A DNA stretch of 61,121 nucleotides from the NCBI GenBank assembly GCA_012008225.1, contig GCA_012008225.1_4768.1. One strand, written 5' to 3'. This stretch comes from a phage. The notes beneath the pieces are model-generated. The model made no database searches. It saw only the letters and a program-made list of their open reading frames with translations, and was not told where the DNA came from. The number at the start of each line of letters is the position of its first letter. The stretch's first letter is position 1. Of this stretch, positions 35,930 to 59,250 are shown one piece after another. A program made the translations under genes and the position numbers.

Positions 35930-38479
35930 ATGCTGGAACTTTTTCCTCAAGAAATTAAACAATACGAACAGTGGGCTGTCTGCGGTTTTCATCCAGGTAC
36001 ATCATCAGAAAAACAACCTTATGTATGGGACGATGATTTAGGGGATATGGTCCCACTTCGTAAAGACGGCAACGATAAAAAACCGTCTAACTTGCATTTA
36101 CTAATGTCCTTTGAAGATGCGGAACGTTGTATTCGTTACTATAACGAAATCGGTCATAATCTGCGTTTAGGTTTCTATCTACTTCCAAGTGACCCGTTCT
36201 GTTGTATAGACATGGATATTAAAGATACCATGTCTGAAATGGAAAAGAAAGTTGCTGGTGAACGATATAAGAAGATTGTTGAATCGTTCCATAGCTATAC
36301 GGAAATTTCCAGAAGTGGTGATGGACTGCACACATGGATTTATTCTATCCCTCAGGCTGGTAAGCGCCGTGATGGTGTGGAAGTGTATTCACAGTATCGC
36401 TTCATTATCTGTACAGGTGATCACTGGGATGTTACTCCGCGTACCGTGTCTGGTGCTCCAGGTAGTGAAAGCGAAGGGTACATTGCGAATCTCATTCATC
36501 AGCTTATGTCAGAGATGAGCGAGATTAATGAGTCCGATGGCTTCCAAATGTTGGAACTTACTGAAGAGGATTTCAGTAATGATCCATATGCAATGGAAGA
36601 TCAGGATGTTTATATCCAGTTGTGCGAACAAGAAAACGGAACATTGTTTAAACAGCTATGGGAAGGTCGTTGGAGAGCTGAAGAAGTTGATACTTCTATC
36701 GGTGAACGTTGTTTCCCTTCTCAGTCTGAAGCAGAATTTGCATTAATTGACTTTCTTTGCTTTAAGAGCAAGTACAATTTCCAGGTAAGGCGTCTATTCA
36801 TGTATTCACCAATGAGTAGTCGTTACGATGATTCACGTCGTATGCCTGGTGAAAAGATTAAACGTCCGTATCACCTGGATAGAATGATTCGCAACTATCG
36901 CTATGATGCCCATGTCAAATCTATGGGACTTATGCAGATAGTTCAGAATAACGTTAATGCAGCTATAGAGCGCACGGAGAAACTGCGTCAGGCAACTACA
37001 CCAGAACGCCCACCTGAAGAAGTGTTGACCACAGATGGTAATTATACTGAGGAGCAGGCGGACGGTTTAGCCTGGCCTCCGGGCTTTATGGGTGAGGTTG
37101 CTCGTAATATGTATAAAGCGAGCCTGTTACCCATTAAAGACATTAGTATTCTGTCTGCTCTTGCTTTATTTAGTGGTATGTGCGGTAAGGCGTGGAACAC
37201 AGTTACACGAAGTGGTTTGAACAACTACTTTGTATTAATTGCACGTTCTGGTATTGGTAAAGAAGCGTTTCGCTCTAACATTGAAACCATTCTTTCTCAG
37301 GTGTCCAATTATGGCGGTCAGGATGGGCAGCAGATATTCGGTATTGAACGTGTTTTAGATACCAGTACCTATGCGTCTGATGCTGCATTGCGCAAAGACG
37401 TCATAATGGATACGTCGGTCATGTCCTGCGGCTCATCCATTAACTATAAGACTGAAGTCGGTGCGTTTTTCCGTAACGGTAAGATGGAAGTCGGTAAAGC
37501 TAAAGACATTATGGATGAAATGCTTTCCCTTTATGATAAGGGGCATTTCTATGCTTTTTCTGGTGGTTCAAAGCACTCTAGCAAAGATAATACGACCGCT
37601 GGTGGTAAAGTCAAGGCGTATAGTTTTGCAGGTGAAACAACACCAGATGAATTTTATGGGAACGTTGATGACCGCATGATGTCAAGTGGTTTCATGTCTC
37701 GTATTATTGCATGGGAATGTACAGCTAACCGTCCGCTGATGAATAAGAGTATGCTTCTGGAATATCCAGAATCTATCCTGCGCACTATTGGGGCTATCTA
37801 TAAACAAGCTGTGCGTATTATGTCAGGGACTGCTCCATGTTATGTTGAAATGGAAGCAGATGTACACGAAGCGTTTGATAACCTTGATAATGTTGTTGCG
37901 AAGTTTCTGAATAGCGGCAATGACGGTGAACAGGTGCAAGATGAAGTAATTCGTCAGATGTACACAAGGAAGGCGTTGAAGGTATTGCGTATCGCCTCCC
38001 TTCTTGCTGTAGCGGATAACAGTGAGCGTCCTGTTGTTACTATGGAACATTATCGTTGGGCCGAGTCATTTATTGATCAGGGTAACGAACGTTTCTTAGA
38101 GAAGCGCAATAGTGGGCAGATTGGATCTACAGATAGTACCAGTCGTGAGAAAATAATGCTCAACTCTATCAAGAAGTTCTTGGATGGGGAAGTTAAAGCT
38201 GGTGTGTATAAACGGTTCCCAATGTTTAAGGACGCGTTTATTGTCACACGAAGTGATTTATGCACAGTATGTCGCCAGTTCAAGGCTTTTAAACAAACAA
38301 GAAATGACAACATCTTGCAGGTCATAGACAACACAATTTATGGTTTGATGTCTATGGAAGTTCTTACTGAAATGAGGCCAATGGACTTTTCAAGTTTCTT
38401 CGGTGCAGAGTTTACACCACCGAGGATGAAATGTTATTTGGTGGACATCGAGAGAATGAACGAAGTCATTAAGTTATAA
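35930..38479 (+). CDS. DNA primase-polymerase (archaeo-eukaryotic primase superfamily) with large C-terminal domain
   Basis: 849 aa; motifs CCIDMDIKD (DxD), SRSGDGLHTW (SxSGxGxH) and CTGDHWD in N-terminal third; C-terminal part may be a degenerate helicase-like domain (SGIGKE). Confidence 0.65.
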   Translation: MLELFPQEIKQYEQWAVCGFHPGTSSEKQPYVWDDDLGDMVPLRKDGNDKKPSNLHLLMSFEDAERCIRYYNEIGHNLRLGFYLLPSDPFCCIDMDIKDTMSEMEKKVAGERYKKIVESFHSYTEISRSGDGLHTWIYSIPQAGKRRDGVEVYSQYRFIICTGDHWDVTPRTVSGAPGSESEGYIANLIHQLMSEMSEINESDGFQMLELTEEDFSNDPYAMEDQDVYIQLCEQENGTLFKQLWEGRWRAEEVDTSIGERCFPSQSEAEFALIDFLCFKSKYNFQVRRLFMYSPMSSRYDDSRRMPGEKIKRPYHLDRMIRNYRYDAHVKSMGLMQIVQNNVNAAIERTEKLRQATTPERPPEEVLTTDGNYTEEQADGLAWPPGFMGEVARNMYKASLLPIKDISILSALALFSGMCGKAWNTVTRSGLNNYFVLIARSGIGKEAFRSNIETILSQVSNYGGQDGQQIFGIERVLDTSTYASDAALRKDVIMDTSVMSCGSSINYKTEVGAFFRNGKMEVGKAKDIMDEMLSLYDKGHFYAFSGGSKHSSKDNTTAGGKVKAYSFAGETTPDEFYGNVDDRMMSSGFMSRIIAWECTANRPLMNKSMLLEYPESILRTIGAIYKQAVRIMSGTAPCYVEMEADVHEAFDNLDNVVAKFLNSGNDGEQVQDEVIRQMYTRKALKVLRIASLLAVADNSERPVVTMEHYRWAESFIDQGNERFLEKRNSGQIGSTDSTSREKIMLNSIKKFLDGEVKAGVYKRFPMFKDAFIVTRSDLCTVCRQFKAFKQTRNDNILQVIDNTIYGLMSMEVLTEMRPMDFSSFFGAEFTPPRMKCYLVDIERMNEVIKL

Positions 38480-44405: not shown

Positions 44406-45152
44406 ATGCAATTTACAACTACCGCTCAAGCAGTTCTGGACACTGGTGTCAAGATGCTTGTGTATGGTGAATCCGGTATGGGTAAAACCATGCTTACAGC
44501 AACTCTTCCAAGACCGTTGCTGATTTCTGCGGAGTCTGGGCTTTTATCTTTAACACCAAATAACATTGCTCGTGTATTTGGTGAAAACAGACCAGATATC
44601 TGTTACGATATTCCAACCATCACGGTTGAAAATATCCAGGATGTGGAGCAGGCTTATGTTTGGGCGACTAACCCTGCAAACAATCCTGTAGGTGAAGATG
44701 GTTTACCGCGCTTTCAGTCTCTTGCGCTGGATTCACTTACTGAGATTGCTGAAAAGTGCCTTAACAATGCGAAGCGTACTGTGAAAGATCCGCGTCAGGC
44801 TTATGGGGATCTCATTGAGAAGATGCAAACTTTAGTTCGCGCTTTTCGAGATATTCCTGGACTTAACGTGTACATGGCAGCTAAAATGTCCCGTAACAAG
44901 GACGAGTTGACAGGTATTACGTCTTACGGTCCTTCTATGCCTGGTGCAAAATTAGGTCCAGAATTACCATACTTTTTTGACGAAGTGTTCAAAATTAGTG
45001 TTGGTAAAGACCAAAATACTCAAGCAGATTTTCGTTATCTGCTGACCAGACCAGATCTGTCAAATGTATGTAAAGATCGTTCTGGTTCGTTAGAACAGAT
45101 GGAATATCCACATCTCGGTGCAATCATTAACAAAATCAAAGGGGTACAATAA
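44406..45152 (+). CDS. Sak4-like RecA-fold ATPase (single-strand annealing / recombination)
   Basis: Walker A GESGMGKTM near N-terminus; 248 aa; followed by an SSB-like gene. Confidence 0.7.
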   Translation: MQFTTTAQAVLDTGVKMLVYGESGMGKTMLTATLPRPLLISAESGLLSLTPNNIARVFGENRPDICYDIPTITVENIQDVEQAYVWATNPANNPVGEDGLPRFQSLALDSLTEIAEKCLNNAKRTVKDPRQAYGDLIEKMQTLVRAFRDIPGLNVYMAAKMSRNKDELTGITSYGPSMPGAKLGPELPYFFDEVFKISVGKDQNTQADFRYLLTRPDLSNVCKDRSGSLEQMEYPHLGAIINKIKGVQ

Positions 45153-46042
45153 TGGCCGGTTTAGGAATGCAATTTAACGCTGGACAACACGCAGAGCGTC
45201 AACACAATAGCTTGATGCCCGCTGGTTGGTATGTTGTTCAGATTGTAAACTCTGAGATCAAACCGACTAAAACTCCAGGCGGTGCGCGTCTGAATCTTCA
45301 GTTTAAGATTATGCAGGGTGATTTTGCTGGTCGTGTAATGTTTGGCGGTTACAACGTCAAGAACGCGAACCCTGTCGCTGTACAGATTGCAATGGAAGAA
45401 CTGGCAGAGCTGTCTCGTGCTGTTAAAGTTCCAGTTTGGAACGATACCGAACAACTGCACGGTATTCCGTTCAACCTGAAAGTGAAAGTTCGTCAGCAAC
45501 CTGGCTATGAGCCAAACAACGAACCTCAGATTTATCAAGCAATTGATAATATGGAAGGTGTTGTATACGCAACTAAAGCGGACATGGCTAACCTGCCTAA
45601 ATCAACTCCGGCAGCGGCAGCACAGTCTCCGGCATTTGGTGGCGGTGCGTTCGGTGGTACTCAGCAACCACAGCAGCAACCGCAGCAGGGTTTCCCGGGC
45701 GCATTTGGGCAGCAGCCGCAGCAACAGCAGCAGCAACCTCAGGCTCAGGGGTTCCAGCAGCAACAACAGCAACAACAGCCGCAGCAGTCTGGAACAGTTG
45801 ATTTTAACAGTGCGGCACAATCTCAACCGTGGGCTAATGGTGCGCAGCAACAGACTCAGCAGCAACCTAACTGGGCAACTCAGCAGGTACAGCCTGGAGC
45901 AGAGCAACCACAAGCTCAAGCTCAGAATACTGGTACTGCTAACCATGCAGAACCTGAAGTCCAGGATGATATCGCTAAAGCAGCTCAGACCAAGACTCCA
46001 CCGTGGAAACGTTCCACTGAAGGCGATGACGCTGCACAGTAA
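45152..46042 (+). CDS. Putative ssDNA-binding partner protein with Gln/Pro-rich low-complexity linker
   Basis: ATG overlaps upstream stop (TAATG); N-terminal ~150 aa globular region, then Q/P-rich tract, acidic C-terminus; function inferred from linkage to Sak4. Confidence 0.45.
   Translation: MAGLGMQFNAGQHAERQHNSLMPAGWYVVQIVNSEIKPTKTPGGARLNLQFKIMQGDFAGRVMFGGYNVKNANPVAVQIAMEELAELSRAVKVPVWNDTEQLHGIPFNLKVKVRQQPGYEPNNEPQIYQAIDNMEGVVYATKADMANLPKSTPAAAAQSPAFGGGAFGGTQQPQQQPQQGFPGAFGQQPQQQQQQPQAQGFQQQQQQQQPQQSGTVDFNSAAQSQPWANGAQQQTQQQPNWATQQVQPGAEQPQAQAQNTGTANHAEPEVQDDIAKAAQTKTPPWKRSTEGDDAAQ
45662..45787 (+). repeat. CAG/CAA-rich low-complexity coding tract (poly-Gln/Pro)
   Basis: Encodes QQPQQQPQQGFPGAFGQQPQQQQQQPQAQGFQQQQQQQQPQQ. 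Confidence 0.8.
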
Positions 46043-46104: not shown

Positions 46105-47055
46105 ATGCCACATTTTTATCCTGCTACTAAGACAATGGAGTTATTCAATGACTGTATTGAACGAGATCAAGGATCCGCTTACAGAGTATGGCTCGGAAAA
46201 GTATTACCGCATATTGAAGACGCATATAGAGAGGGAGATGGCGGATTCCGTTCGCATCTTGGGATTAGTCTTATCGGGCAAGAATGTAGTAGAGCAATCT
46301 TCTACGGATGGCGATGGGCAACTAAACCACACTTTAACGGTAAAACCTTACGTCTATTCAATCGCGGGCATCTTGAAGAAGGTCGCTTCGTGGCCTTACT
46401 ACTTACCGCCGGTATGCAAGTCATCCAACAAGACGAAAATGGCAGCCAGTATCGAGTTAGCTATCTCAACGGGCACTTTGGCTCCGCGATAGATGGTATT
46501 GTCATTGGTTGCCCTGACATGCCACAACCTTCTACACCAATCTTGACAGAGATGAAAACGCACAATAACGATTCGTTCAAGAAACTTGTCGTTAATGGTG
46601 TGATGGAATCCAAATGGGAGCACTATGTTCAGATGCAGGAATACATGTTGTATTATGGACTCCCAGCCGCTCTTTATATTGCAGTTAATAAGAACACGGA
46701 CGAGATTTGGGCAGAGCTTGTACCGTTTGATAAAGAAACCGCAGAACGCTACAAAGAACGTGGATTTGTAATTGCACTGGCAGAATGCCCACCACCTAAG
46801 ATCAATGAAAGTAAGTCTTACTATAAATGCAAATGGTGTGACCACAAAGCAGTATGCCACAACAACAAAATGCCTGAAGTTAACTGCCGCACTTGTAAGC
46901 ACTCATATCCGCTTGAAGATGGAACCTGGAGATGTGCAATCAAAGTGGCTTCTGCTACTGCATACATCACGGATGGAACCGAAGGTGTATTAACGAAGGA
47001 AGATCAGATGACAGCATGTGGTCAATACGAAGCAGCAGATTATTACGGTGAGTAA
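46105..47055 (+). CDS. PD-(D/E)XK nuclease with C-terminal cysteine cluster (Cas4/RecB-like exonuclease)
   Basis: Motifs DGIVIG ... EMKTH ... YVQMQEY, then CKWCDHKAVC ... CRTCKH; 316 aa. Confidence 0.65.
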   Translation: MPHFYPATKTMELFNDCIERDQGSAYRVWLGKVLPHIEDAYREGDGGFRSHLGISLIGQECSRAIFYGWRWATKPHFNGKTLRLFNRGHLEEGRFVALLLTAGMQVIQQDENGSQYRVSYLNGHFGSAIDGIVIGCPDMPQPSTPILTEMKTHNNDSFKKLVVNGVMESKWEHYVQMQEYMLYYGLPAALYIAVNKNTDEIWAELVPFDKETAERYKERGFVIALAECPPPKINESKSYYKCKWCDHKAVCHNNKMPEVNCRTCKHSYPLEDGTWRCAIKVASATAYITDGTEGVLTKEDQMTACGQYEAADYYGE

Positions 47056-49059
47056 ATGTTCAAACTACGTGATTATCAGCAAGAAGCTGTAAATAGTACA
47101 TTGCGCTATTTCATCAAGTATGGTGAAAAGTCAGGAAATCCTGTTATCTTGTTACCTACAGGGACTGGTAAGTCCCTTGTAATTGCTGGTCTATTAAAGA
47201 CAATTCATGATAATTGGGGTAGTACCCGCATGATGGTAATTACTCACGTAAAAGAATTGATAGACCAGAACCACGATAAGTTTAAGAAGTTGTGGCCTGA
47301 AGCACCGACTGGTATTTATAGTGCTGGTATGGGCCGCAAAGATAAGAACGCAATGATAACGTTCGCCGGTATTCAGTCTGTTGCAAAACAAGCTAAATAC
47401 TTTGAAGACGTTGATATTATTATAGTTGACGAATGTGACCTTATTAGTCCAAACCAGCAAACAAGTTATCAGAAGTTCTTTGCGCACATTCGTGAAAAGA
47501 ATCCATATCTAAAGATTATCGGTCTTACTGCTACGAGTTGGCGTCTTGGTTTTGGTTCTATTATCAAAGATGATTATGCGCCTAACGCTTTATTTGATGA
47601 AATCGTATTTAACGCGTGTACCGTAGAGTGCTTCAACTGGTTCATCGATGAAGGTTATCTTGTTCCGTTAGTACCACGTAAAACAAAGAAAGAGTATGAT
47701 GTAAGTGGTGTTCATACTCGAGGCGGTGAGTTCATTGAAAGTGAACTTCAAAAGGTTGTAAACGATCCTGATGTAACTCGCCATTTATTAGATGATGCAA
47801 TTAGTATTGCGGAAGAAGAGAATAGAATGAGTTGGCTTATCTTTTGTGCTGGTGTAGACCATGCAAAAGATGTAAAAGACTATCTCAATGAACGCGGTAT
47901 TAGTTGCGAAGTTGTAACTGGTGATACACCGAAAGCCTTGCGTGACCAGTACCTTATTGACTTTAAAGCTGGTCGTTTGCAGGCAATAGCGAACAACAAC
48001 GTATTAACGACAGGCTTCGACCATCCGGGTCTTGACTTGATAATTGGTATGCGCCCGTCCCAATCTTCCCGACTATGGGTTCAGATGCTTGGACGTGGTA
48101 CTCGACCTGATTATGCTGATGGTTTTGATTTGACCACAACAGAAGGTCGTTTGCAAGCTATCTCCGCTTCGCATAAACAGAACTGTCTTGTACTGGATTA
48201 TGCTGGTAACACAAGACGTCTTGGGCCTATTAATGATCCTGTCATTCCTAAGCGTCCAGGGCAGAAAGGAAAGTCCGCTGCACCTGTTAAAGAATGCCCG
48301 GTATGTAAGACCTGGAACCATGCGTCGGTTCGCTATTGCGGTGGGTTAAAACCATTCGATACAAGTAGTATGTCTCATGAGGAAATACTCTATCTACAAG
48401 GATTAGGTTATACCATTACAAATAATAAAGCGTGTCGTGCTGGTTATTGCGGTCATGAGTTTACTTTTGAGAAGAAACTAATGGCGAGTGCTAGTACGAA
48501 GGCCATTATCAAGAATGATTTACCAGTCACTGAAGTATTGAAAGTTGATATGGTTAGTTACTATCGTCATGAGAACAGGGGTGACCGTTCTAAGCCACCA
48601 ACACTTCGTGTCGACTATCTTTGTGGCTCACAAACTATTCAACAATATATTTGCCTGTTCCATACTGGTTTTGCAGGCAAGAAAGCGCGTAACTGGTGGC
48701 GTGAGCATTGCAGCTTGGCAATCCCAGCCAACATCGACGAAGCCCTCAATGTGGTCAGCCAGCTCCGTGTACCGACGCACATTTATGTCAACTTGAAGGG
48801 TAAGTTTCCTGAAGTGTTGAATAGTTGTTATGACGGTAGTGAGTTCGGTAAGAAAGAAGCAACCAACGAACGTCCGGTTGTACAAATCGCAGCAATGAAT
48901 GGCTTGTCCCAGTTTGGTGGAAGTTATACGAATAAGTTTGATGAAGACGAGCAGACTGATTCTCGTACGACAGTATTGCATTCTACGTCTAATCAACCTA
49001 TTCTTAATGGTAACGGTAAAGAACTACCACCAGATTTTGATGACGACATTCCATTTTGA
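47056..49059 (+). CDS. SF2 DNA helicase with C-terminal SSB-like acidic tip
   Basis: LRDYQQEAV, Walker A PTGTGKS, Walker B DECD, helicase C-terminal motifs, zinc-ribbon CPVCKTWNH; last eight residues DFDDDIPF (codons 49033-49056). Confidence 0.85.
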   Translation: MFKLRDYQQEAVNSTLRYFIKYGEKSGNPVILLPTGTGKSLVIAGLLKTIHDNWGSTRMMVITHVKELIDQNHDKFKKLWPEAPTGIYSAGMGRKDKNAMITFAGIQSVAKQAKYFEDVDIIIVDECDLISPNQQTSYQKFFAHIREKNPYLKIIGLTATSWRLGFGSIIKDDYAPNALFDEIVFNACTVECFNWFIDEGYLVPLVPRKTKKEYDVSGVHTRGGEFIESELQKVVNDPDVTRHLLDDAISIAEEENRMSWLIFCAGVDHAKDVKDYLNERGISCEVVTGDTPKALRDQYLIDFKAGRLQAIANNNVLTTGFDHPGLDLIIGMRPSQSSRLWVQMLGRGTRPDYADGFDLTTTEGRLQAISASHKQNCLVLDYAGNTRRLGPINDPVIPKRPGQKGKSAAPVKECPVCKTWNHASVRYCGGLKPFDTSSMSHEEILYLQGLGYTITNNKACRAGYCGHEFTFEKKLMASASTKAIIKNDLPVTEVLKVDMVSYYRHENRGDRSKPPTLRVDYLCGSQTIQQYICLFHTGFAGKKARNWWREHCSLAIPANIDEALNVVSQLRVPTHIYVNLKGKFPEVLNSCYDGSEFGKKEATNERPVVQIAAMNGLSQFGGSYTNKFDEDEQTDSRTTVLHSTSNQPILNGNGKELPPDFDDDIPF

Positions 49060-49066
49060 GGCTTAT

Positions 49067-49306
49067 ATGGCAAAGATGACTTTCAGGAGTAATGACCATT
49101 TACCAGAAGAAGGTGAATGGAAGACTTTTAAAGAGTGGGAAGAGTTAGGTTATGGTGTAATTAAAGGTGAAAGAGCTAAACGGTTTATTCACGGTGTTGC
49201 AGTTTTTCACGAAAGTCAAGTAATCAATATTGAAGATGAGTTCGAAAAATATAAACGTGAAGAACTGCAAGGAATGTATTGTGGACCAGAATGGTGGAAG
49301 GATTAA
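49067..49306 (+). CDS. Hypothetical protein
   Basis: ATG at 49067, 7 nt after GAGG (ORF-track frame from 48899 overlaps helicase); 79 aa. Confidence 0.5.
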   Translation: MAKMTFRSNDHLPEEGEWKTFKEWEELGYGVIKGERAKRFIHGVAVFHESQVINIEDEFEKYKREELQGMYCGPEWWKD

Positions 49307-50029
49307 ATGTACATATTAGTCGATTATGATCGGATGCAGGTATTAGCCAAGCATCCAAACTTCCAACGTCTTCATGAGTATGGAATTCTGTGTTGTAGCG
49401 AAAGCTCCGTAGTTCTTCCGTTGGAAGTTGAAGAACTCTATAAAGAGTTTGATGATGTACAAATGCAACTTTTGTACATCAACTTAACGGGTAATAAGCA
49501 AGGTGCTTTATATCCAAAGAAAATGATCAGTAAGATTATTCACTATTTTTTAAATGAGATACCGGAGACAGTAATAGATGCGGATGTGGCTGAACAAGCG
49601 GACTGGGCAATTGCTAGTAATAAAGAGGGTGAGTGCATGTACCGCGAAGGCAGCTCTGTTCCAGATTTGGGGGAGGAGCCTAATATTCAAGTACGGAATG
49701 ATAGTTCATTGGAATCCACCATCATTGACGGCCCAACCGTACAAACAAACATGGGCGTACAACTGGCATGGACACCGACAAAAGAGCGGCAAGGTACTAG
49801 CACACCGGCAACCGAAAAACGTGCCGCAACGTCGCGTACAGCCGGCACTCGCGATATTATTTTCGCTGTTGCTGACGAAATGTGGAAAGAAGCTTGTGAA
49901 CCTCGTGACAAGAAGGAAATCCTTCAGCTTAGAAAACAAATGATGGATCGTTTAGAGACACAAGGTGTGAAGCGTAATACATCAAGTAATACATTAGGGG
50001 TCTGGGTAAAAGAACGTGGCTTAAATTAA
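49307..50029 (+). CDS. Hypothetical protein
   Basis: 240 aa; ATG at 49307 after GGAAGG. Confidence 0.55.
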   Translation: MYILVDYDRMQVLAKHPNFQRLHEYGILCCSESSVVLPLEVEELYKEFDDVQMQLLYINLTGNKQGALYPKKMISKIIHYFLNEIPETVIDADVAEQADWAIASNKEGECMYREGSSVPDLGEEPNIQVRNDSSLESTIIDGPTVQTNMGVQLAWTPTKERQGTSTPATEKRAATSRTAGTRDIIFAVADEMWKEACEPRDKKEILQLRKQMMDRLETQGVKRNTSSNTLGVWVKERGLN

Positions 50030-50125: not shown

Positions 50126-50950
50126 ATGGCTAAAGAGAAAACTGAAGATCAACTGTTGGCTGAAGAAGCCGCGAAGAAAGCCGCTGCGGAAGCTGAAGCA
50201 AAGAAAAAACGTGAAGCTGAAGAAAAAGCAGCGCGTGAATTGCAGGCTAAAGTTGACGCCGCAATGAACGAAGCCACTGCCGGTTACAATGTGATCGAAG
50301 GTGCTATGTCCGCTGTTAAAGAACAGTTTGACACTCTGCACGAAGGTTCGTTGCTGGACGAAGTTAAAGCAGTTGAAGGGGTAGTTACCGCTCAACTGAA
50401 GACCGCTAAAGAAGGTCTGAAAGCTGTTAAAGCAGCAGCACGTAAAGTTAAAGACAACGATCAACTAAAAACTGCCGTTGCAGCATCTGAAGATCTGGTT
50501 TCCGGTGTTGAAGCCACTCTGAAAGATGTCAAAGGCCGTGTATCCGCTGCCCGCGAAGCCACTAAAGCCGCTGAAAAAGCAAAACGTGACGCTGACCGCG
50601 CTGAGAAGAAACGTCTGCAGGACGAAGAGCGCGCTCGTAAAGCAGCAGAACGCGAAGCTAAGAAAGAGCCGGAACAGAACGGTATTCGTAAGCCTGGTGC
50701 TGGTACTCTGTGCCGTGCTGCATGGGACATCTTTGACGCTGTTACCATGGAGCTGGGTCAGACTGCACCGATCAGCTACGTTCTGCCGGTTGCACTGGAC
50801 AAAGGCCTGAACGAAGCGAACGTCAAAGCGGAATATGCTCGCTGGAAGAAATACATGGGCATTACTGGTCGCGTATCAGTTCCAGTACCTGCTAATATTG
50901 CACAGGCGGCCGCTAACGTAGAAATTCCGTCTCAGAAATCTGCAGAGTAA
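50126..50950 (+). CDS. Ala/Lys/Glu-rich protein, probably abundant (possible DNA-associated protein)
   Basis: 274 aa; GAGGAT before ATG; codon choice dominated by CTG, CGT, GGT, AAA, GAA, GCT; N-terminal ~190 aa predicted helical, charged; flanked by own promoter and terminator. Confidence 0.65.
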   Translation: MAKEKTEDQLLAEEAAKKAAAEAEAKKKREAEEKAARELQAKVDAAMNEATAGYNVIEGAMSAVKEQFDTLHEGSLLDEVKAVEGVVTAQLKTAKEGLKAVKAAARKVKDNDQLKTAVAASEDLVSGVEATLKDVKGRVSAAREATKAAEKAKRDADRAEKKRLQDEERARKAAEREAKKEPEQNGIRKPGAGTLCRAAWDIFDAVTMELGQTAPISYVLPVALDKGLNEANVKAEYARWKKYMGITGRVSVPVPANIAQAAANVEIPSQKSAE

Positions 50951-56287: not shown

Positions 56288-57280
56288 ATGGATTTGCTTG
56301 ATGCTTTAAAGTTTGTTCAGGGTTCTGTAGCTAAGAAAGAACTTCAGGAAGGTTTAACTCACTTCCGTATTGTTGATGGTACTGTGCGCGGGTTCAACGG
56401 AACTATTTCATTGTGTAGTCCAGTGCCGCTGAATATTGACTGTACACCTAAAGCTGAACCAATGTTGAAGGCTATTGCAGCATGTGATGAAGCTGTACAG
56501 ATGACAATGTTAGCGAACGGCAAGTTGAGTATTAAGTCTGGTGGCTTTAAGGTTAGTGTGGATACTCTTCAGAAACCAACTGCACACGTAGAGCCAGAGG
56601 GAACAATTCACGAAATAGACGGTCAACTTTTTCTCAACGGTTTAAGCCGTGTAACGCCGTTTATAAGCGACGATGCTTCCCGCCCGTGGTCTTGCGGCGT
56701 GCTGGTAAAACAGGGCAGTATGTACGCGACCAACAACGCTAGTATTATACAATATTGGTTCGGTGCTGTATTCCCTGTAGATTGTGTTGTGCCACGTATG
56801 GCCATCAAAGAATTATTGCGTATTAAAAAGCCACCAGTAAGAATTCAATGTACAGATACCAGCATGACATTTCACTACGAAGACGGTTGTTGGTTGCGTA
56901 CCCAATTGTTGGAATTAAAGTGGCCTAACATTGATAAGATAATTGAGCGTACAGAAAAGGGGTCCGACGTCTATACGCTTGATACTGAGCTTTTTAATTG
57001 CTTAGAAAAGATAAAACCGTTCTGTGAGCGGGATGGGCGTATTTACATGGAAAATGGTGTTGTACGCACACATTACAACGAGCTGGATGGTGCTAGTGCA
57101 ATGTTCCGTGAATCTAAGTCAATTGGCGTGTATAATATAGATCTCATTATGCAGTTGAAAGGACTTGCAACGGACTGGGATGCTTCGCGTTTCAATGAAA
57201 AGGACGAAAGGGGTCTTTCAACTCCTATTATTTTTTATGGTGAAAATCTACGTGGGGTAATTGTAGGATTTCGTCTATGA
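56288..57280 (+). CDS. Putative sliding-clamp-like processivity factor
   Basis: 330 aa directly upstream of and overlapping the polymerase gene; weak resemblance to beta-clamp N-terminus. Confidence 0.4.
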   Translation: MDLLDALKFVQGSVAKKELQEGLTHFRIVDGTVRGFNGTISLCSPVPLNIDCTPKAEPMLKAIAACDEAVQMTMLANGKLSIKSGGFKVSVDTLQKPTAHVEPEGTIHEIDGQLFLNGLSRVTPFISDDASRPWSCGVLVKQGSMYATNNASIIQYWFGAVFPVDCVVPRMAIKELLRIKKPPVRIQCTDTSMTFHYEDGCWLRTQLLELKWPNIDKIIERTEKGSDVYTLDTELFNCLEKIKPFCERDGRIYMENGVVRTHYNELDGASAMFRESKSIGVYNIDLIMQLKGLATDWDASRFNEKDERGLSTPIIFYGENLRGVIVGFRL

Positions 57281-59250
57281 GAAAAGATGCTATTGGTTTC
57301 TTTTGGGAGGATTTACCTCCCGCTAAGAAAGAGAAGAAACAGAAAGTAAAACGTCAACCAGTTGAAAGGGTATGGGAACGCCCGGACTACCTTCCAGGTC
57401 TTGATGCAGCAATGCGTTTTGCAGCTAATGATCCGCGTATGACAGACGGTGAATTAGTGGAGATGTATTTTGCACAAGAAACGTTCGTATACGATATAGA
57501 ATGCTATAAGAACTATTTTCTTGTGGCGTTTAAAGGGGTTAAGTTCGGTAAGGTTTATTATCTAGAAATGACTGCCGGTCAGACACTTGACACGGAAAAA
57601 TATGAATGGATAATGAAGAACTTTCGTACTGTTGGTTTCAACTCAAGAAACTACGATAATACGATGACATTCCTTGCCATTGCTGGTTTAACTGTTGACA
57701 AGCTGAAAGAAGCAAGTGACAGGATGATCCAGGAAGAGTGGGCTCCGTGGGATATTCTTAACAGCTTTGGTGTAAAACAGTTTTGGATTGACCACATTGA
57801 CGTTCAAGAGGTAGCTCCTGGCTTCGGTTCGTTGAAGCTGTACGGTGGCCGTATGCACATGCAGAAGCTCCAGGACTTACCATTCCCACCACATTGGGCG
57901 TTATCAGTAGAACAGATTGCTATTGTGCGCTTCTACTGTATCAACGACCTTGATACAACAATGGCTCTGTTTAACTCATTGGAAGAGCAGATCCATTTAC
58001 GTGAGATTATGAGTGAAGAGTATAAAGTAGACCTTCGCTCTAAATCCGATGCACAGATTGCAGAAGCTGTAATCCGCCATGAAATGAAGGAAATGCTGGG
58101 CTTCGTACCACAGAAGGGTATGGTGGAAGTCGGTAGAACCTTTAGGTACAATCCTCCAGTGTGGTTAGGTTTCCAAACTCCACTAATGAAGTCTGTATTT
58201 CAGGTTGTGCTTGATAGTTACTTCCGAGTTGCAGAAGATGGTAAAATTAAGCAACCATCAACCATGAACTCTTTGAAGTTTACAATCAATCAGACAACTT
58301 ACAACATGGGTATCGGTGGTCTGCACTCATGCGAAGAGTTAATGGAGATTGTACCATCTGAAGATGAAGAGATGTGGGATGCTGACGTAACGTCATACTA
58401 CCCAATCTGTATCATTAACCAGCAACTGTATCCTGAACACCTGGGCCCACGTTTTATTGATATCTTCGTTAAGATCGTAGAACGACGTATTGCAGCTAAG
58501 ATGGCTCATGACGATAAGACCGCACAAACTCTTAAGATCGTTATCAACGGTTCCTATGGTAAGTTCGGTTCACCGTTCTCTATTCTGTATGCACCGCACC
58601 TTATTATTCAGACTACACTCACAGGTCAGTTAGCTCTACTTATGCTCATTGAGACACTAGAGCTTAACGGTATTCAGGTCGTTAGTGCTAACACGGATGG
58701 TATCGTTATTAAGCCTTGCAAAGCTAAGAAGCAATTAATGACGGATATCATTAAGTGGTGGGAGGAAACAACGGGCTTTGAAATGGAGTTGAACCAGTAT
58801 CTGCGCCTTAACTCTGCAAACGTTAACAACTACGTTGCAATCAAGGCGGATGGTAAAGCCAAGCGTAAAGGTTGGTTCGCAGAGACTGGCTTAGCTAAGA
58901 ACGCTGAAGGTGAGATTATTATGGATGCAGTTGTTAATCTGCTTCGTGACGGTACACCAATTGCCAAAACTATCACAGAGTGTCAGGATATTCGTAAGTT
59001 TGTTTGTATCAAGACAGCTAATGGTGGAGCTGCGTGGAATAGTGAGCCGTTAGGTAAGGTTGTTCGCTGGTATTACACAAAAGAAGAAGTGCCTGAAATA
59101 TTGATAGTCAAGAGTGGTGGACGTGTCGGTAAGACAGCAGGTGGTAAACCTATGATGGAACTCACTGACCAGCTACCGCCAGATCTCAACCACGAAGTAT
59201 ACATAGCTAAAGCGGAAAAATTGCTGGAAAAACTCGCATACGCCGCTTAA
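57277..59250 (+). CDS. DNA polymerase, family B
   Basis: Exo I YDIE, exo II YCINDLD, motif A DADVTSYYPICII, motif B KIVINGSYGKFG, motif C ANTDGIV; 657 aa. Confidence 0.85.
   Translation: MRKDAIGFFWEDLPPAKKEKKQKVKRQPVERVWERPDYLPGLDAAMRFAANDPRMTDGELVEMYFAQETFVYDIECYKNYFLVAFKGVKFGKVYYLEMTAGQTLDTEKYEWIMKNFRTVGFNSRNYDNTMTFLAIAGLTVDKLKEASDRMIQEEWAPWDILNSFGVKQFWIDHIDVQEVAPGFGSLKLYGGRMHMQKLQDLPFPPHWALSVEQIAIVRFYCINDLDTTMALFNSLEEQIHLREIMSEEYKVDLRSKSDAQIAEAVIRHEMKEMLGFVPQKGMVEVGRTFRYNPPVWLGFQTPLMKSVFQVVLDSYFRVAEDGKIKQPSTMNSLKFTINQTTYNMGIGGLHSCEELMEIVPSEDEEMWDADVTSYYPICIINQQLYPEHLGPRFIDIFVKIVERRIAAKMAHDDKTAQTLKIVINGSYGKFGSPFSILYAPHLIIQTTLTGQLALLMLIETLELNGIQVVSANTDGIVIKPCKAKKQLMTDIIKWWEETTGFEMELNQYLRLNSANVNNYVAIKADGKAKRKGWFAETGLAKNAEGEIIMDAVVNLLRDGTPIAKTITECQDIRKFVCIKTANGGAAWNSEPLGKVVRWYYTKEEVPEILIVKSGGRVGKTAGGKPMMELTDQLPPDLNHEVYIAKAEKLLEKLAYAA

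Follow-up and report, generated by a model that had tools for sequence, protein, structure and literature searches.

The window analysed here, a 61,121-nt stretch of phage DNA (GenBank assembly GCA_012008225.1, contig GCA_012008225.1_4768.1), encodes a RadD-like SF2 helicase of 667 aa (positions 47056..49059, plus strand) that ends with a copy of the C-terminal tip of SSB, the bacterial protein that binds single-stranded DNA. This tip, DFDDDIPF, occupies residues 660-667 (49033..49056, plus strand), with the stop codon at 49057-49059 directly after it. The helicase C-terminus reads ...KELPPDFDDDIPF (also given as ...NGNGKELPPDFDDDIPF) and that of E. coli K-12 SSB reads ...EPPMDFDDDIPF (also given as ...SNEPPMDFDDDIPF); the last eight residues of the two proteins are identical (8/8), in agreement with the initial annotation of this DNA, which had recognized the SSB tip in these codons from the letters alone. 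Judged by comparison across related phages, the tip is a conserved tag, presumably for docking, that moves among proteins of the phage DNA-replication machinery, and it is a feature of the module rather than of one protein. The best explanation, to which we assign a rough probability of 0.45, is that this copy of the SSB C-terminus (SSB-Ct) docks in trans, with host SSB-interacting proteins as its likeliest receptors.

The gene is the sole long open reading frame (ORF) at its position, and its assignment combines the ORF list with Pfam, a sequence search of the PDB and Foldseek. It belongs to a phage 9g-like siphovirus (Nonagvirus, Queuovirinae), and its DNA is 95-96% identical to that of BRET, JenP1, 9g, FritzHoffmann and 14 further records. 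The very C-terminus of its product conforms to the SSB-Ct pattern D-D-D-[IL]-P-F. Given the amino-acid composition of the window in all six frames, DFDDDIPF would be expected by chance 3.5e-7 times anywhere in it and 1.8e-8 times directly before a stop codon. The window has no second copy of the motif, and among its other plausible genes none has an acidic tail ending in Phe.

Conservation of the tail was assessed in a family alignment of the window protein and 120 database relatives with 44–99% identity. Among these 121 proteins, 117 end in PF, including 96 with IPF and 20 with VPF. Counted back from the C-terminus, Pro is found at position -2 in 119/121 sequences, Phe at -1 in 117/121, Asp at -5 in 104/121 and Asp at -4 in 94. 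The roughly 60 columns preceding the tip have an entropy of about 3 bits and are about half occupied, and across the family 20–86 residues follow the last motif of the folded domain. Sister lineages (P0002-P0006) end in PMDFDDDIPF, which is identical to the end of E. coli SSB at 10/10 positions. Within Nonagvirus, the tip codons vary only synonymously (GAT/GAC, CCA/CCG), and the linker beside them has accumulated N/T, P/H and P/S replacements. As read from these alignments, the tip is under strong purifying selection beside a hypervariable linker. Lack of conservation among homologous helicases, which the initial annotation had named as an argument against its own proposal, is not what we found, since PF ends persist down to approximately 44% identity. 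In five of the 120 relatives, a second, internal copy of the tip is located 21–31 residues upstream of the terminal one. At deeper divergence, the linker and tip were found in 29 of 150 representatives of 50%-identity clusters (38–52% identity), and the remaining ones stop at the folded domain (...KYPEIxxYEF). Because the deep representatives mostly end at the folded domain, the tail is, on this comparison, an appendage of particular clades.

The arrangement closely resembles that of the E. coli SSB-Ct (MDFDDDIPF), with which it shares the last eight residues, a position at the extreme C-terminus with a free carboxylate, and a disordered, poorly conserved linker. It differs in that the phage carrier is an SF2 helicase and not an oligonucleotide/oligosaccharide-binding (OB) fold protein, in that each polypeptide bears a single tip, in that relatives use a zinc-ribbon mini-protein or a beta-clamp as carrier, and in that partner binding by the phage tip is putative. 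The proposal in the initial annotation that the helicase may mimic SSB stands as far as the mimicry itself is concerned, which is real and selected, as indicated by the PF ends, the 10/10 sister tips and the SSB-like linker–tip architecture; the host partners that it listed keep the status of candidates. Its further suggestion that the tail loads the helicase at SSB-coated DNA is not supported by current knowledge: an SSB tip binds pockets of partner proteins and not the SSB–DNA complex.

The protein body that presents the tip was described in the initial annotation as an SF2 helicase, and it can be assigned more precisely to RadD. The Pfam families ResIII, DEAD and Helicase_C match residues 2-350, and the Walker A (PTGTGKS), motif II (VDECD) and motif VI (QMLGRGTR) sequences are present in two RecA-like domains, with G38, K39, S40, D125, E126, Q343, G346, R347, G348 and R350 invariant in the family alignment. 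The best solved relative in a phmmer search of the PDB is E. coli RadD (6jde/7r7j, E=2.7e-64), whose residues 3-387 align with residues 2-417 of the phage protein. These two motor domains (47059..48306, plus strand) include the positions that correspond to the RadD pocket for the SSB tip. They are followed by a four-cysteine zinc-finger region (C414, C417, C428 and C465; 48295..48450, plus strand), which is invariant in the family and at whose aligned position RadD has its CPAC motif, and by a folded C-terminal domain (residues 487-616; 48514..48903, plus strand) that aligns with the RadD C-terminal domain. A MAFFT alignment with E. coli RadD runs through both of these regions to about residue 593. 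An AlphaFold2 model built with 107 sequences has a mean predicted local distance difference test (pLDDT) score of 87, with values above 90 in the C-terminal domain up to about residue 610. Since the top eight Foldseek matches of this model in the PDB are all RadD chains (E~1e-35, approximately 640 aligned columns) and the next one, SauUSI, reaches only E~3e-16, the body is, according to alignment and model, a full-length RadD homologue with motor domains, zinc finger and C-terminal domain. No OB-fold domain for binding single-stranded DNA (ssDNA) was found in the helicase, the SSB-like protein of the phage being encoded by a separate gene (45152-46042). RadD reportedly accelerates RecA strand exchange.

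E. coli RadD ends in ...RLAHELRG without a linker or tip, and the phage helicase adds residues 617-667 to the RadD body. The linker (residues 617-659; 48904..49032, plus strand) is disordered and hypervariable, as indicated by the model, by column entropy and by the within-genus replacements. The pLDDT falls below 50 over residues 617-667 and to about 33 at the tip, so that, by the model and by its gap-rich, hypervariable columns, the tip is presented on a disordered linker in the manner of the SSB-Ct. Other members of the helicase family are considerably longer, such as the relative P0033 with 995 aa and the representatives P0124, P0127 and P0133 with 900–1583 aa; some of the long proteins contain intein or homing-endonuclease domains (PF05204, PF05203, PF14528), and others have 340–390 extra residues N-terminal to the helicase core.

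We further analysed the genomic neighbourhood of the helicase in a set of 198 related loci (IMG/VR and four GenBank phages), with tip carriers counted in the 181 loci that have a complete helicase ORF. A carrier was defined as an ORF ending in [IVLM]P[FWY], and KIPF, AVPF and PPF variants were also considered. The tip is carried by the helicase in 64 loci, by a small four-cysteine protein in 44 loci and by a beta-clamp homologue in 36 loci, and by a 67-aa Cys-containing ORF, labelled Cas4exo by reference BLAST, in one more (L181). Two carriers were found in a single locus (L161), and no carrier was detected in 35 loci. Where the tip is present, then, it is with this one exception confined to a single carrier per module. 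Among the loci counted as lacking a carrier, several have variant or decayed clamp ends (...DDNFPPF, ...DDEIQF and ...SDDISV) or small-protein ends (...YMEEPPF and ...IPDMPT), some are truncated contigs and some are genuine absences.

The small protein (phrog_23504) has 62–74 residues and four cysteines, ends in ...W..[DE][IVL]PF and is encoded 3' of RadD-like helicases that have no tail. Its gene starts at the helicase stop codon or overlaps it, the latter in most loci (for example, ...VVVVGCPEWLGEIPF); representatives are found in L068 (5201-5401), in L087, which is Salmonella phage BP63 (5652-5873), and in L045 (4547-4744). A word-indexed protein search with the 66-aa form retrieved 13 close relatives. 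The clamp carriers are DnaN-like proteins of Septimatrevirus-like phages, in which a short linker is followed by an ...[DE]DDIPF tip; they comprise the clamp of Pseudomonas phage 73 (L086, 5980-7122; ...NYEDDIPF) and those of 35 further loci (L088-L179). The helicase is found in 457 GenBank phages, and each of the three main arrangements is represented among cultured phages. The tip is on the helicase in Nonagvirus, in the Seuratvirus GottfriedDienst (...VDDPDYVPF) and in the Nipunavirus PaMx25 (...YADLDDDIPF), on the small protein in Salmonella phage BP63 (...FDYDVPF) and Stenotrophomonas phage Bhz54, and on the clamp in Pseudomonas phage 73.

To place these states on the helicase phylogeny, a neighbour-joining tree of 168 distinct helicases was rooted with E. 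coli RadD. The carrier state requires a minimum of 4 changes on this tree, compared with a mean of 64.5 (minimum 56) when the labels are shuffled. Since carrier switching is structured by clade, the tag has been kept through its relocations across deep divergences. The small-protein state is basal and paraphyletic on the tree, the helicases that bear the tip themselves group in essentially one clade of 62 members that includes the window protein, and the clamp-borne state makes up one or two clades. The ancestral tip carrier appears to be the small four-cysteine protein. A second clade of helicases with tips, at 32–35% identity, was found in contigs binned with Lentisphaerae, Victivallales and Verrucomicrobia, its tips reading DFDPDDIPF, DFDDDEIPF and similar. 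A fourth carrier occurs in some other Sak4–DUF669(–Cas4) modules, where the DUF669 protein ends in DDDIPF (L344, L369 and L372); in the phage group of the window, DUF669 never has this tip and has PPW instead.

The distribution of such tips in viral proteins at large was examined in a sample of 116 viral genes ending in DDDIPF-stop, 47 of which were scanned against PHROGs. The sample includes 34 canonical SSBs, and SSB families form the largest annotated category among the scanned genes; of the carriers that could be classified, the majority thus belong to SSB families. The others comprise five RadD-like proteins, three DUF669 proteins, one clamp and one DnaB-like primase/helicase, the rest being unannotated small proteins. 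Carriers other than SSB are thus a minority, yet they are not unique to the RadD-like helicase. The DnaB-like primase/helicase (phrog_239) is a truncated ORF on an unrelated IMG/VR contig (L390); because it ends in ...GGDDDIPF, it suggests that host-type SSB tips are also found on replicative helicases outside the RadD-like family. Several families of small viral proteins of 60–100 aa likewise end in DDDIPF (L282, L303, L311, L357 and others), for example a family of 73–75 aa with the consensus M.D.FI.A...KYEAEI...GIGEHPQF...DDDIPF.

In the window, the helicase gene closes a conserved block, Sak4–DUF669–Cas4–helicase. The first gene of this module (44406..45152, plus strand) encodes a Sak4-like (AAA_24) single-strand annealing ATPase, as assigned by profile matches and by synteny in related loci. 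The second (45152..46042, plus strand) encodes a DUF669 SSB-like protein (phrog_6015) with an OB-type N-terminus and a long linker of low complexity, rich in Q, P and G, and the third (46105..47055, plus strand), immediately upstream of the helicase, encodes a Cas4-domain PD-(D/E)XK exonuclease (phrog_1990, E=7e-115). The SSB-like protein ends in ...TKTPPWKRSTEGDDAAQ without a DIPF tip, and its PPW motif is encoded at nt 45998-46006. A [PA]PW motif lies 2–15 residues from the C-terminus in 57/57 DUF669 homologues from related loci (including L004-L080), on which grounds the phage SSB-like protein bears a C-terminal label of its own, PPW. The motif looks like a private, non-acidic 'tip' of the DUF669 protein.

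The block is preceded by genes for a primase, RNase H and ligase, the primase (35930..38479, plus strand) having AEP and DUF3987 domains by profile matches, and followed by two conserved proteins, 7-deazaguanine genes, a clamp and a DNA polymerase. The clamp gene (56288..57280, plus strand; phrog_947), annotated as 'processivity factor', encodes a beta-sliding-clamp (DnaN) homologue that ends at the fold, without a tip; the profile of its family matches bacterial beta sliding clamps over most of its length (E=4.8e-10). A clamp loader was recognized neither in the scanned proteins of the module nor in the annotations of relatives. The DNA polymerase gene (57277..59250, plus strand), identified by synteny and by the annotation of the near-identical phage FritzHoffmann and used as the polymerase reference in the BLAST comparison of synteny, encodes a candidate phage-internal receptor of the tip.

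Between helicase and clamp, most related loci have two conserved proteins, phrog_7864 and phrog_11298, which are encoded in the window at 49307-50029 and 50126-50950; some relatives of the latter begin with a SAP/HeH-like motif (...ELRAACKEAGIKNYGKMNNDGMRAAL...). The ORF directly after the helicase (49067..49306) encodes 79 residues ending in ...CGPEWWKD and belongs to phrog_24889. It has a sub-threshold match to the ArdC N-terminal ssDNA-binding domain (PF08401, E=2.7e-4, 21.6 bits against a cut-off of 22.6 bits). We ruled out that it is a degenerate version of the small tip-bearing protein, as it belongs to PHROG 24889 and not to 23504 and has no CxxC motif.

In E. coli, the SSB-Ct docks onto pockets of chi, PriA, RecQ, ExoI, RecO, RNase HI and RadD, among other proteins (PMC10238739). 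According to the explanation that we favour, the tip, held on a flexible tether of about 45 residues by a RadD-type SF2 helicase, would act in trans as a docking peptide of the same kind. Because the SSB-like protein of the phage ends in PPW instead, a host-type tip would provide the phage machine with a handle on the proteins that read the host SSB code, and related phages would put this handle on the helicase, on the neighbouring zinc-ribbon adaptor, on the beta-clamp or on an SSB. The interchangeability of helicase, adaptor and clamp as carriers fits a handle that can be presented in trans by any fork-bound protein. The tail is thus interpreted as a functional, portable SSB-tip docking peptide, with the binding to any pocket, and the identity of that pocket, inferred. 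The chi subunit of the host clamp loader is an attractive candidate receptor, as the phage has a beta-type clamp of its own and no loader that could be recognized. In this more specific and rather doubtful form, the host-type tip, uncoupled from the phage SSB, would be a portable label that borrows the host clamp loader via chi so as to load the DnaN-like clamp at phage forks or D-loops.

Several observations weigh against docking on host proteins. The helicase is itself homologous to a protein that binds SSB tips, and a receptor in the same protein or elsewhere in the phage would be equally economical. The translational coupling of the small tip protein to the helicase would suit a partner dedicated to that enzyme. 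The Seuratvirus tip deviates (...DDPDYVPF) although the tip of its E. coli host is DFDDDIPF, no tip was found near the helicase in Roseomonas-type prophages, and some clamps end at the fold. The cultured hosts are all Proteobacteria with an identical SSB tip and provide no contrast by which a tracking of the host by the tip could be seen; the prophage matches in genome contigs are mostly mis-binned phage contigs in metagenome-assembled genomes. Finally, the need of the phage clamp for a loader is presumed from its homology to DnaN.

Among the alternatives, the strongest, a serious rival that we hold to be less likely, places the receptor in the helicase itself, in the RadD-type SSB-Ct pocket of motor domain 1. 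RadD binds the SSB-Ct with a dissociation constant of approximately 5 uM and responds to the peptide alone with increased ATPase activity (PMC10238739). Since the phage SSB lacks this activating peptide, the phage would supply it elsewhere: the helicase itself would bear it, working in cis or from one molecule to another, or else a small dedicated activator subunit or the clamp, the last of which would couple the helicase to the polymerase–clamp. Such a scheme is favoured by the full-length homology of the phage protein to RadD and by the overlap of the small-protein gene with the helicase stop codon in most loci, and a single ligand per genome fits a single receptor. The pocket itself gives a mixed picture. 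In E. coli RadD it is hydrophobic and framed by R21, R49 and R145, each of which is essential (PMC10238739). In the phage family, the essentially invariant F19, as well as L46, I121, I155, R58 (equivalent to RadD R51) and K153 (equivalent to R145; K or R in 120/121), are conserved in all carrier groups, whereas N, G or S takes the place of R49, next to an insertion of five residues, and the position of R21 varies or falls in a gap.

Compared with E. coli RadD (YejH; PDB 6jde, 7r7j and 8h5y), the phage protein shares full-length homology and a partly conserved SSB-Ct pocket, and differs in lacking two of the three pocket arginines, in its Sak4/DUF669/Cas4 context and in its C-terminus: RadD, which ends in ...LAHELRG, reads the SSB tip, whereas the phage protein has, in addition, a tip of its own. 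Moreover, the pocket is equally conserved in lineages that lack a tip and provides no specific support for an internal receptor; with equal conservation in all carrier groups as well, it proved uninformative as a means to discriminate between the receptors considered. AlphaFold2 leaves the tip disordered both in the window protein and in a short-linker relative (P0097), with pLDDT of about 33–35 and no docking in cis. Stable self-docking of the tail is not supported by these two models, which are weak evidence with contacts that could not be inspected. A constitutively self-occupied pocket would carry no positional information, and the zinc-ribbon body of the small protein would simply have been lost in the fused form.

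Somewhat less probable still is a T7-like coupling within the phage machinery, in which the tip would bind the phage polymerase, Sak4 or the OB fold of DUF669. In phage T7, the C-terminal tails of gp4 bind basic patches of gp5, as in the precedent of the gp4 and gp2.5 tails on gp5, and deletion of the tail lowers processivity (PMC12593628). In phage HK620, stimulation of Sak4 requires the SSB tail NDYPPF (PMC5928155), and PPF-type tips do occur in loci of the helicase family. The polymerase, clamp, Sak4 and DUF669 are conserved across loci, and the DnaB-like primase/helicase described above provides a second helicase with a DDDIPF end. The T7 gp4 tail, which mimics the tail of the gp2.5 SSB, is similar to the tail described here in being an acidic, aromatic-ended, flexible docking tail of the SSB kind on a phage helicase. 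However, gp4 is a hexameric SF4 (DnaB-like) helicase-primase and the helicase of the window is of the SF2/RadD type; the gp4 tail mimics the phage's own SSB and has the polymerase basic patches as receptor, whereas here the tail copies the tip of the host SSB, and the phage SSB ends otherwise. The tip is indeed an exact host-SSB tip and not a generic acidic tail, which argues against an internal partner. With the polymerase as receptor, the tethered function would differ between lineages (helicase in some, clamp in others), and no pocket for the tip is known in the phage polymerase, Sak4, clamp or DUF669.

A recent accidental capture of the 3' end of host ssb, or a chance and non-functional tail, is effectively refuted: the final 30 nt match E. 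coli ssb at 23 of 30 positions, but the mismatches lie at synonymous third positions and in one codon, as the shared peptide by itself would predict, the tail is found family-wide, in relatives at 32–50% identity from many environments and hosts, the linker has no similarity to the SSB linker, and the chance expectation is about 1e-8.

In full-text searches of the literature, we found no account of an SSB tip borne by a phage RadD-like helicase, by a beta-clamp of a phage or by the small protein. Host-type tips are otherwise displayed by phage SSB-like proteins such as Bas52_0087 (FDDDIPF) and the HK620 SSB (NDYPPF), which resemble the present case in that a phage protein shows such a tip, and differ from it in that the carriers are SSBs, the ordinary case. 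For these proteins, cross-talk with partners of the host SSB (ExoI/SbcB) or with Sak4 has been either suggested or demonstrated, and the nearest report is a 2026 preprint in which a phage SSB-like protein with an FDDDIPF tip triggers DRT10.

Beyond this one helicase, the comparison reveals an SSB-type tip that is conserved and portable in many related replication modules, a large group from phages of Proteobacteria, and the family includes well-behaved E. coli phages of the BASEL collection (Nonagvirus and Seuratvirus). SSB tips are the central means by which bacterial genome maintenance recruits its proteins, and they have been proposed as a target for antibiotics. If docking on host proteins is true, these phages would tap the host SSB interactome from a fork-bound protein and not from an SSB spread over all ssDNA; alternatively, the switch by which SSB activates RadD would have been turned into a built-in one. 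The family provides a natural 'tip-in-cis' variant of RadD, which is relevant to the cellular function of RadD, and it may also matter for defence systems that detect SSB-like proteins of phages or disturbances of ssDNA metabolism.

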